From contig CANQGP010000002.1 of the NCBI GenBank assembly GCA_947623285.1, forward strand, positions 23,143-55,142: a stretch of 32,000 nt of DNA, written 5' to 3'. The notes beneath the pieces are model-generated. The model ran no database searches. It saw only the letters and a list, made by a program, of their open reading frames with translations, and was not told where the DNA came from. Position 1 is the stretch's first letter. Each line of letters opens with the position of its first letter. The DNA is from an uncultured Clostridia bacterium (GTDB lineage: Bacteria; Bacillota; Clostridia; TANB77; CAG-508). The position numbers and the translations under genes are program-made. Shown here one piece after another: positions 1 through 14,589 of the stretch.

Positions 1-3000
1 TACTAAGATTAATACAGTGTATACCATTTCTGAACCTGTTTTAACACTAACGATTGTATCTGCTGCACTGTAGTCATCCTCGTTTTTATCTCCGTTTCCT
101 GGTGTTGAGTTAATATCTTGTGTTCCTTCTTCGTTGTATGCTTCTGTGATTTCAGCTGTATTTCCCATGATTCCTGTATTACTTTCTGTCATTGTTTTTG
201 TTAATATTAATGTTACTACTCCACTTTCTCCTGGTGCTATTGCTTTGTTTTGTAAGCTATTTGTTCTTAACACTGTTCCTGTTTGATACCAATCTTGGTT
301 TAATTCTGAATTGAATACCATATCTTCTGGCATATAGTCGTCTATTGTTTTAACATATCCTGATACTTCTCCGACATTTTTTGCTTCTATTTTATATTCA
401 ATTATTAAATTGGCACCTTCCATCTTTTTGCCGTCAAGTTCAACTTTTGCTAATACTTCTTTGTCATAATTATATGTTTTTACATCTCCGTCATTTGTTC
501 TTACTGTTATTTTACTTATGTATTTTTCTAGTGCAAAATCAAATTTTCCTGTTGTTACTAATCCTATGTTTATGTTTGAAACATTTGAATTTTCTTGAAT
601 TGCTAACATATCTGTTATTCCATAGGTTTTTTCTTCTCCATCTATTCTAAGTGTTTTAGAGATTGCCTTTGAATTGCTGCTTGCGTCTACTCCTGGTTTT
701 TGATATTCTGTAAGTTTATATGTTCTTGTATCATATTCAAATATTACAACATATTCACCTTGTGGTATATTCTGAAGTGTATATAATCCTGTACTATCTG
801 TAGCACTTTGTATTTGATTTCCATTTTCATCTTTTGCAAATTCATTTGTTTCAATATTTAATAATTTTACTGTCATATTTTCTACTGTATTTTCATAATC
901 ATCTTTTGCTCCATTCAAATCTCCATCTACCCATGCATATCCAGATATTGTACCTTTACTAGTAGGATTTGGATTTTCTCCTGGTTCTGATGATGGGTTT
1001 GTTGTTGGTTCTGTTGATGGATTTGTTGATGGCTCTGATGATGGGTCTGTCGATGGTAGTGGTTCTTCTTGCGGTTCTCCTATTATGTGCTGTATTGTTT
1101 TTGTTTGTCCGACAACATTTCCTTTTTCCATTAATTCGACTTTATTATTTATTGGTATATTTTCAGTAGTTTCTCCTTGGTAATTGATTAATACTTTTGC
1201 TGTTAATGTTTTTTCTTCTTCAGGTCCCAAAGATATTACTTTGTTTATCTTATTATCTACCGCTTTTACTACATCTGTGTTTCCATCTTGTGATGTTATT
1301 GAAGCTTCAGCTAAAGAAACTTGTGATGGTAATTGATCAACCACATTTAATACTGGATATTCTATATTGCTGTTGTTTTTTATTCTTACTGAATATGTAA
1401 TTGCATCTCCTGATTGAACATATCCGTTTTCTTGTACATCTGAATTGATTGATAAATCAAATCCCTTTAAATATTCTAAATCAACATCCAATGTTGTAGA
1501 ACGATATGTATTACTTCCTGCTGTTACTATTCCTGATACTGATACTTTATCTTTTTGTGAATTTTCTACTACTTTAAATATTACATCTACTAAAGCACTT
1601 TGACCTGGTCCTATTGATTCTATAGTTATAGTTTCGTCATTTTTTGGTGCAAACTCTACATCAGTTGTTAATCTGTTTGATATTCTTTCTAATTCTGCTG
1701 GTGCATTCCATTTAGCTTTTACATTTTTTATTTCGTGATCTGTTGTATTTTTTATTTCCATCCTGCAGTTAACATTGTCACCTTCTTTATATGTTTGTGT
1801 ACTAACAACGAAGTATGTAATTGCTACTTGTAAGTCTCCACTTTGTTTACCTACTTTTACTGTAACTTCATTAGAATCTATACTTTTTTCTTCAAAACTT
1901 ACTGTTGCCTTACTCTTTATTTGCATTCCTGTTTCTGCTTCATTATTTACAATTACTTCAAAGCTTACTGTTTTACTTTCTTTTGCTTTAATTTCTTCTA
2001 TTTGAATTGTTTTTTCAGTTGCTTCTTCTTTATTTATTGCTAGTCCTTCTCTTGAAATTAATGTTGTTCCTTCTGGTATTTCAACTTTAGCTTGTACATT
2101 TGTTAAGTCTTCATCTCCTGTATTTTCTACTTCTACATCATATCTTATTATTTCATTTCTATTTACTTCTGAATCATTTTCTAATACTTCTCCTCCAACA
2201 ACTGCTGTTAAATTTGCAACCATTTGAGGTCCATTTGCTGTTTTTAATGCTATTGTTGTTGCTTCCATTTCTTGTGCTGAACTTGCTTGATTGTCATTAT
2301 ATTTTACTGAATATCCTTGATACATTTGTTGTTTATATTGTAGATTTTCTGGTACTGATATTCCATAAGATATTTTCATTGTTTCTGCAACATTCATATC
2401 TGATACTTGTACTAAATATTTTTTTGCTGCTCCTGTATTTGTTACTGTTTGTTCCCATCTATTTGACAAGTTTTCTAAATCGTCTGTTGCTTTTTCATTT
2501 TCTGTGTAATAAACTCTTACTTTACTTGGATCTATTCCTTCTACATTTAATGCTGTTGTTAATTGTGTATTAATGTTGTTTTCATATTCTTCTTTTCCTA
2601 TTTGTGCTTTTCCTTTTGTTCCAAATGTTCCCATTACTTTTACATCTGATATTTCACTTTCGTTGTTATTTATTACTTCTGATTCTACTGTTAATACCTT
2701 TTGTTCAGCTCCTGTAGGAATTGTTACATTTACTCCTTTTTGTTCTCCTACTGTTGAAACTCCTAATTCAGATATACTGTTTGTTGTAATCAAACTTCTT
2801 GGTGATACTATATCTACTACTGCTTCTTCTGTTCCTATTGGTGCTGCATCTTTATATTGATTTGCTTTTGCATTTGTATATGTCATTACTATACTATCTT
2901 TTTTGTTTAATGCTCTATTATTTAATGTAAGATTAGCATTTATGTCTATTACCGTTCCTTCTGTTCCTGCATCTTTATGTTCTTTTTGCTCTCCTATTAA

Positions 3001-14560: not shown

Positions 14561-14589
14561 ATTATACCCCTTTTTCTCAGATTTTTCAA
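14561..14589 (-). promoter_or_regulatory. Near-consensus sigma-A promoter for the 14469-9691 / 9673-5243 gene pair
   Basis: The minus strand reads TTGAAA (14589-14584), 17 nt, TATAAT (14566-14561). An ~85-nt leader contains the hairpin GGTAGA-11 nt-TCTACC. Confidence 0.7.

Follow-up and report, generated by a model that had tools for sequence, protein, structure and literature searches.

The Class II thioester domain (TED) is built from a six-stranded barrel, a three-helix bundle, an inserted β-sandwich, and a slipknot hairpin, in which a universally conserved cysteine, within a [YFL]C-Phi-zeta motif, forms the bond with a glutamine located on the returning strand past the inserted sandwich (PMC6194298). 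A 2025 survey described DUF11/CLIPPER, SdrD_B, and SpaA as domains of pilins and of the stalks of fibrillar adhesins; the DUF11/CLIPPER domain was solved with an isopeptide bond, and such bonds were predicted in SdrD_B members (PMC12617251). Analysis of a window of 32,000 nucleotides from contig CANQGP010000002.1 of an uncultured Clostridia bacterium revealed a locus of four giant genes, labelled A, B, C, and D (coordinates are positions in this window unless another contig is named). The locus probably encodes cell-surface fibrillar adhesins, each module pairing an A-type rod protein of ~1600 amino acids with a B-type thioester-isopeptide (TIE) adhesin.

The locus consists of two bicistronic modules arranged in tandem, A-B followed by C-D; their four genes total ~22 kb, and D is located to the left of the window. 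Translation of the open reading frames (ORFs) confirmed the three intact genes that a first-pass annotation had placed on the minus strand: gene A (9691..14469, stop codon included; 1592 amino acids), an A-type rod protein; gene B (5243..9673, stop codon included; 1476 amino acids), a TIE-type adhesin; and gene C (1..4854), a second A-type paralog whose last 27 codons lie beyond the left edge of the window. As had also been proposed, A and C were colinear paralogs over their full length, with an identity of 38% (634 of 1671 columns). A and B were separated by 17 nucleotides (9674-9690) containing a GGAGG ribosome-binding site, with the start ATG of B at 9673; the gap of 8 nucleotides given earlier for the same ATG is obtained only with an alternative TTG start at 9682. 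The first-pass annotation had described a three-gene unit in which two paralogs bracketed a third protein, and it had suggested looking left of position 1 for a further paralog or a sortase. A B-like gene was found there and a sortase was not: on contig L001, an identical B and a complete C of 1645 amino acids were followed leftward by the fourth giant gene, D, after a gap of 17 nucleotides containing an AGGAGG ribosome-binding site. Since C is followed by a B-like gene after a second 17-nucleotide gap, the locus is composed of two A-type/B-type modules and not of a three-gene unit. D (10714-15370 on L001) was called as two ORFs of 98 and 2556 amino acids, split by a 1-nucleotide frameshift within the thioester-like head, with YCLA in the 98-residue ORF and QQVVIW in the main ORF; either D is a genuine pseudogene or the frameshift arose in the assembly. 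The protein contained three or more SpaA-type domains and aligned with B over the stalk segment from SpaA to SdrD_B. An NlpC/P60 domain in D was suspected from the DCSTYV...GH motifs and is not claimed here, since Pfam gave only an E-value of 0.11 and the PDB search returned no relevant match.

The head of B (residues 35-320; 8714..9571, minus strand) resembled the Class II thioester domain in its predicted fold and in its invariant residues. In the AlphaFold2 model of residues 1-1200 (predicted local distance difference test score, pLDDT, of 80), six strands (37-107) were followed by three helices (109-119, 132-147, and 163-175), a β-sandwich, and a hairpin (274-295/298-317), which is the order of the secondary-structure elements in Class II domains. 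The same β-barrel, three-helix bundle, inserted β-sandwich, and long hairpin are shared with BaTIE (PDB 6FWV), SaTIE of S. aureus, and EfmTIE86 of E. faecium. The best Foldseek match of the model was 6FWV, the full-length TIE protein of Bacillus anthracis (E-value 5e-17), seven orders of magnitude ahead of the next distinct structure, and the other matches were the Gram-positive pilins EbpB, BcpA, SpaD, and RrgB together with SdrD. A homolog search with B found 68 proteins, and 65 orthologs were compared for the candidate thioester residues. Cys63 (codon 9485-9487), the sole cysteine among the 1476 residues of B, was conserved in all 65, in the context F-C63-I-Q and with an ortholog consensus of [FY]C[VMA]E. 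Gln298 (codon 8780-8782) was likewise conserved in 65 of 65 and its neighbor Asn299 in 64 of 65, in the context G-Q298-N-L-I at the turn of the predicted hairpin. A helper motif, TQXX-Phi-W, is located on helix α2 of Class II domains, and its residues are non-essential for thioester bond formation (PMC6194298). B carried K-Q134-Q-A-V-Y on the predicted helix 132-147 (Q134-x-A-V-Y starting at 9272-9274) and its orthologs PV[QA]NAIW, with Gln at position 134 in 30 of 65 and Trp at position 138 in 63 of 65. The QxAIW motif, likely the feature spotted in the first-pass annotation, probably corresponds to this helper motif. Within B, conservation was lowest in the head (0.25-0.40, versus 0.5-0.6 in the stalk), a pattern that would be expected of a tip that binds a ligand. 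B is thus predicted to be a divergent member of the Class II TED/TIE family, in which a Cys63-Gln298 bond would form, and the earlier designation of the middle protein as thioester-type was supported by the predicted fold, the top match, and the two invariant residues.

The head is followed by a stalk of β-sandwich domains on the same strand. Residues 325-423 formed a SpaA/CnaB-type domain (8405..8701; PF17802, E-value 1.5e-12, 48 bits with a cut-off of 23.1), and residues 452-519 an SdrD_B domain (8117..8320; PF17210, E-value 1.7e-11, 44.7 bits). The further stalk, residues 520-1435 (5369..8116), matched no Pfam family, contained the conserved motifs YIEFEYDG, GFNVGVKF, and YEDDTD, and was modelled as mostly β-strand with short helical inserts. 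K331, E397, and N427 of the SpaA domain were invariant in an alignment of 12 sequences and may form a Lys-Glu-Asn isopeptide triad, which fits the CnaB type. The protein ended in a sorting-like signal (5246..5362) with TSPTG at 5348-5362, a transmembrane segment, and a KKK tail. B therefore resembles Class II TIE proteins in that its head leads into a CnaB/SpaA-type stalk, with a sorting-type signal at the C-terminus, but it is three times longer than BaTIE (1476 versus ~560 residues), carries T[PS]xTG instead of LPATG, and is encoded directly behind a partner protein of 1600 residues.

The domains of A likewise lie on the minus strand. Residues 1-36 (14362..14469), with a basic n-region and then a hydrophobic stretch, formed a signal peptide or membrane helix (helix 2-35 in the AlphaFold2 model). 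An array of predicted β-sandwich domains (residues 40-855; 11905..14352) was followed by three DUF11/CLIPPER repeats (residues 861-1230; 10780..11889; PF01345 in three stretches, E-value 3.9e-9, 37.3 bits with a cut-off of 24.6) and an SdrD_B domain (residues 1257-1351; 10417..10701; PF17210, E-value 8.5e-11, 42.5 bits with a cut-off of 29.7). The repeats were also matched by TIGR01451 (E-value 6e-17), which was the only addition of NCBIfam to the Pfam matches. In C, the three DUF11 repeats (53.9 bits) and the SdrD_B domain (37.2 bits) were above the curated gathering scores as well. The SdrD_B, DUF11, and Cna-B-type repeats named in the first-pass annotation were thereby recovered above the Pfam cut-offs: SdrD_B in all three proteins, DUF11 in A and C, and SpaA in B. 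The last, wall-proximal domain of A (residues 1365-1552; 9814..10377), which appears to be a further β-sandwich, was the best-conserved part of the protein: conservation was even along A (mean ~0.45) and peaked here at 0.60-0.69. Its D-x-N-S-T-P-x-N...E-N-D motif was also present in B. A sorting-like signal (9694..9813) terminated the protein, with SIRTG at 9799-9813, a hydrophobic segment, and a K/R-rich tail; the corresponding motif of C was SVKTG (34-48, minus strand). PDB sequence searches with full-length A, with residues 856-1552 of A, and with full-length B returned no match.

When 10 A-type proteins were compared with Pfam, their first ~860 residues gave no match even with the threshold relaxed to E<=0.1, in agreement with the earlier remark that the N-terminal regions of the two paralogs belong to no recognised family. 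The AlphaFold2 model of residues 1-1000 of A, built from an alignment of 46 sequences, had a mean pLDDT of 86 and was all β-strand beyond the N-terminal helix. Foldseek comparison of this region with the PDB returned generic multi-immunoglobulin (Ig) proteins only, with TM-scores below 0.2 and identities of ~8%: macroglobulin (MG) domains of α2-macroglobulin and complement, integrin legs, and the Ig-like domains of PrgB. On the basis of this all-β model and these generic matches, the N-terminal ~820 residues of A and C are predicted with high confidence to be a plain chain of β-sandwich domains with no recognisable head. An exhaustive HMMER search with residues 40-855 of A returned 1054 representative clusters at E<=0.001, of which 526 were at E<=1e-30. 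Nearly all listed full-length matches were colinear with A, in proteins of ~1600 residues; more than 500 full-length homologs of this size were found, and among the matches listed the lengths were mostly ~1570-1680 residues with no variation in repeat number. None of the 10 homolog clusters that were looked up was named. The A-type proteins are a large unannotated family of fixed architecture, and with A and C the fibrillar adhesins gain new members that had lacked annotation. They resemble the DUF11/CLIPPER and SdrD_B adhesins (PMC12617251), such as SdrD of S. aureus, in having a signal peptide, a long β-sandwich chain that includes three DUF11 repeats and SdrD_B, and a C-terminal anchor. They differ in having no recognisable adhesive head and no LPXTG, in a distal part of 820 residues that falls in no described family, and in a domain number that is fixed and not repeat-variable. 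The whole length of the locus proteins was not assigned to adhesin families with known ligands, an assignment that in the first-pass annotation would have refuted its proposal.

The A-B module recurred at one chromosomal site. When a single genome of each species was scanned with the B-family alignment, 217 stretches encoding B relatives were obtained; 80 loci were retrieved, and synteny was counted over these with a script combining ORF calls and BLAST. All 80 came from metagenome-assembled genomes of uncultured gut Clostridia (humans, rabbit, and mouse), including Clostridium sp. CAG:343. Full-length A-type and B-type genes were adjacent in 68 of the 80, with a median gap of 20 nucleotides, and in 60 of these 68 minC lay upstream of the pair, after mreB-mreC-mreD-PBP2. 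Downstream of the pair, 25 of the 68 loci had a second A-type and B-type pair, 20 a single B-type gene of more than 2000 codons, 6 an A-type gene only, and 1 an A-type gene with a B-type gene of more than 2000 codons, while 16 had nothing further. Where the second module was missing, at least some loci ran on into spoIIE and housekeeping genes, as in the relative L002. The occurrence of the pair at a fixed site suggests that the A-B module is old, vertically inherited, and a core feature of this gut Clostridia lineage, with a variable second module. A mobile-element or horizontal origin was rejected because of the fixed core site, the lack of mobility genes, and a GC content like that of the flanks. 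Between species, A and B were ~37% identical, versus 62-75% for MinC and PBP2, a divergence that appears to be the usual faster drift of surface proteins with the architecture retained. Several other contigs carried intact copies of A (99% identical) and B (identical), so the genes gave no sign of decay in sister strains; such decay was named in the first-pass annotation as something that would count against its proposal.

A, B, C, and their families all begin with a signal peptide and end in a hydrophobic segment with a basic tail. The A-type terminus reads [SG][IVL][KR]TG before the transmembrane segment and basic tail, and the B-type terminus TP[NASP]TG[AE]N before the transmembrane segment and IKKK, with TP[NASP]TG present in the B-type proteins of 51 of the 68 loci. 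Only the TG of the terminal motif was conserved between the proteins of the window (SIRTG in A, SVKTG in C, and TSPTG in B). These motifs are similar to the non-LPXTG signals of the SrtB substrates of Clostridioides difficile, with T[PS]xTG of B close to (S/P)PXTG and S[IV][KR]TG of A close to NVQTG, a resemblance at the level of motifs only; they differ in that the first residue is mostly Thr in B and that no cognate sortase was found at the loci. The resemblance suggests processing by a clostridial sortase of non-LPXTG specificity.

If the locus does encode fibrillar adhesins, A and B would be exported by Sec through their signal peptides and held at the surface by the xxTG motif, hydrophobic segment, and basic tail, either through a non-LPXTG sortase acting at T|G or as a transmembrane helix. 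The Class II thioester domain of B would be projected from the cell, and its Cys63-Gln298 internal thioester could react with an amine of the target to give covalent attachment. Stalk domains of the isopeptide and Ca-binding types may confer mechanical and protease resistance in the gut. A would be co-transcribed and probably translationally coupled with B, and most likely acts beside it on the cell surface as a further fibre, of non-covalent type, or as a spacer. The proposal of surface-displayed fibrillar proteins with isopeptide-type β-sandwich stalks was supported. The stronger proposal of an undescribed, dedicated attachment apparatus was not, since no component beyond the adhesins themselves was found; as already observed in the first-pass annotation, the window and its flanks contained no sortase, pilin, secretion, or regulator gene.

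Several results weigh against this interpretation. The Pfam TED model (PF08341) matched neither B nor 26 ortholog heads at E<=1, where only scattered single-member chance matches appeared, and NCBIfam gave no TED match for B either. A PDB sequence search with the 26-sequence profile of the B head returned nothing at E<=10, and a homolog search with the head profile, aimed at annotated TED proteins, returned only 2 proteins. Since the TED sequence models miss the head, the thioester assignment is carried by the predicted fold and the motifs. The helper motif is degenerate compared with Class II TIE proteins, its Gln being replaced by Ala or Ser in about half of the orthologs and its Trp by Tyr in the B of the window. 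No ligand-binding head was recognised in A by Foldseek against the PDB. None of A-D contained LP.TG, no LPXTG-anchor model of NCBIfam was matched, and no sortase was detected by the TLxTC signature in ORFs of 150-400 amino acids at any of 81 loci, a search confined to the loci. NVQTG, the nearest known analogue of the A motif and the proposed motif of CbpA, gave no cleavage with SrtB in vitro (PMC4155245). D was frameshifted on L001, the sole contig on which it was seen.

The alternative that fared best concerns the anchor. The proteins could be held by a C-terminal membrane helix and never be processed by a sortase, in which case the conserved TG would simply mark the end of the last β-sandwich domain. 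This is possible, though we think it doubtful. It agrees with the lack of a linked sortase and of LPXTG, with the uncleaved CbpA motif, and with the A motif having no proline, a residue common to nearly all sortase signals. Nevertheless, TP[NASP]TG occurs in 51 of the 68 loci and is near the experimentally cleaved (S/P)PXTG, and two protein families that differ in other respects both have the motif, hydrophobic segment, and basic tail, spaced in the canonical way. The anchor is either a substrate of a non-LPXTG sortase or a plain membrane helix; a membrane helix would alter only the anchoring step and leave the adhesin role untouched.

The chromosomal position invites an explanation that would take the proteins away from adhesion: the core pair may form a structural envelope layer or cell-shape scaffold needed by the envelope of these reduced-genome Clostridia. 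The fixed site after mreB-mreC-mreD-PBP2-minC, the mostly constant length, even conservation, and constant repeat number of A, and the investment of four genes of ~22 kb in relatives whose contigs of ~1.56-1.62 Mb may be near-complete genomes would all be consistent with such a role. We nevertheless regard it as unlikely. A-B is preceded by a promoter of its own and is separated from minC by a divergent gene that is conserved; all recognised domains are of types described for adhesin stalks or pilins; a head of the thioester type implies that something outside the cell is captured covalently; A and B are far less similar across species than MinC and PBP2; and no SLH or CWB2 domain for S-layer-type wall binding was found by Pfam. 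A more ambitious form of the adhesin hypothesis, which we also consider improbable, is that the A-type and B-type proteins work only together, as one surface machine, and are not independent adhesins. In this form, the thioester of B might be locked covalently onto A in a composite fibre, or the cells might depend on a partner organism or on host mucus and be attached to it by the pair, and the TG signals would represent a new class of sortase specificity. Such a machine would explain the single core site, the translational coupling, and the duplication as a pair.

The locus also shares isopeptide-stabilised CnaB/SpaA-type domains, a possible distal thioester protein, and several surface proteins per locus with the sortase-assembled pili Cpa/FctA, RrgA/RrgB, and EbpA-C. 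A heteromeric pilus with an A-type shaft and a B-type thioester tip, like Cpa in the pili of Streptococcus pyogenes, is nonetheless the least probable of these readings: the pilins that follow 6FWV among the structural neighbors of B, the weak match of D to the SpaH/EbpB major-pilin model of NCBIfam (39 bits, versus a cut-off of 95), the co-encoding of A-type and B-type genes (adjacent in 68 of 80 loci), and the TG-containing C-terminal signal conserved on both proteins speak for it, but no class C or other pilus-specific sortase adjoins the genes in the window or at the 81 loci, A-D have neither a YPK or V-x-V-Y-P pilin motif nor LPXTG, subunits of 1600 residues are far above the size of known shaft pilins, and the pilin matches are confined to the shared CnaB/SpaA-type stalk domains. 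A sporulation-specific role, considered because spoIIE lies downstream in some relatives, was set aside in view of the Sec signal peptides and the near-consensus sigma-70 promoter. A literature lead on a "conserved pilin" of TANB77 concerned a Tad-type pilus cluster, which is a different locus.

The expression signals were read from the window directly and by promoter and terminator scans. The sigma-70-type promoter of gene A, TTGAAA-17-TATAAT (14561..14589, minus strand), which the first-pass annotation had also picked out, was the top promoter-like site within 1-15400, with 11 of 12 matches. The total of promoter-like sites did not exceed that of shuffled sequence (80 versus an expected 83), so only this site carries weight. 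AGGAGG was located 8 nucleotides ahead of the ATG of A at 14469. An intrinsic-terminator-like hairpin with a T-run was present after B, as reported before (5185..5221, minus strand), although its stem comprised 16 pairs, with a 5-nucleotide loop, and not 12. The A/T-tract spacer before C was likewise found, with a length of ~330 nucleotides (4855..5184, minus strand), and contained weak promoter-like sites. The separate promoter that had been proposed for C is weak: the sites at 4922-4893 had only 9 of 12 matches, a level not above the shuffled expectation. The spacer was composed of phased A-tracts and T-tracts, for example aaaaaatttaaaaaaatttaaaaa, and may therefore be a stretch of intrinsic DNA curvature close to where the second module has its promoter. 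The GC content of the window was low throughout (25-33%), and the locus showed no compositional break against the remainder.

Several neighboring genes were also noted. Between minC and gene A, an ORF of 141 amino acids lay on the opposite strand (14703-15128, plus strand); it was found with 31-50% identity in most related loci, had no Pfam or NCBIfam match, and may or may not be related to the adhesin locus. minC itself (15289-15930), directly downstream of which the adhesin locus lies, was not followed by minD or minE here or in the lineage loci L002-L081. radC (20913-21525, minus strand) was split into two overlapping ORFs, one for the N-terminal helix-hairpin-helix part (21271-21525) and one for the JAB domain (20913-21338), which suggests a frameshift or a sequencing error. 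An ORF of 570 amino acids (30223-31935, minus strand) was very rich in Lys and Glu and contained an HExxH-like HEIQHH motif, with no Pfam or NCBIfam match. Near the locus of the relative L002 (22412-23755), a protein of 447 amino acids combined an N-terminal methylation motif like that of type IV pilins with BspA-type leucine-rich repeats and is a putative further surface protein of the lineage.

What is new here is descriptive and does not amount to a new mechanism or type of system: two genes form a fixed module, this module has a core position in the chromosome, and its proteins have TG-type termini. The A-B genes are among the largest in genomes of maybe only ~1.6 Mb. The pair is present in at least 68 species-level genomes of uncultured mammalian-gut Clostridia, with B relatives in 217, and the relatives examined were all unnamed. 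The analysis defines a region of 820 residues that has no Pfam coverage and is common to more than 500 protein clusters, and it describes non-LPXTG sorting-like signals that are missed by annotation pipelines. It also predicts, in a form open to direct testing, that Cys63 and Gln298 are the residues of covalent binding, and could guide the study of how unculturable gut bacteria attach to their surroundings.

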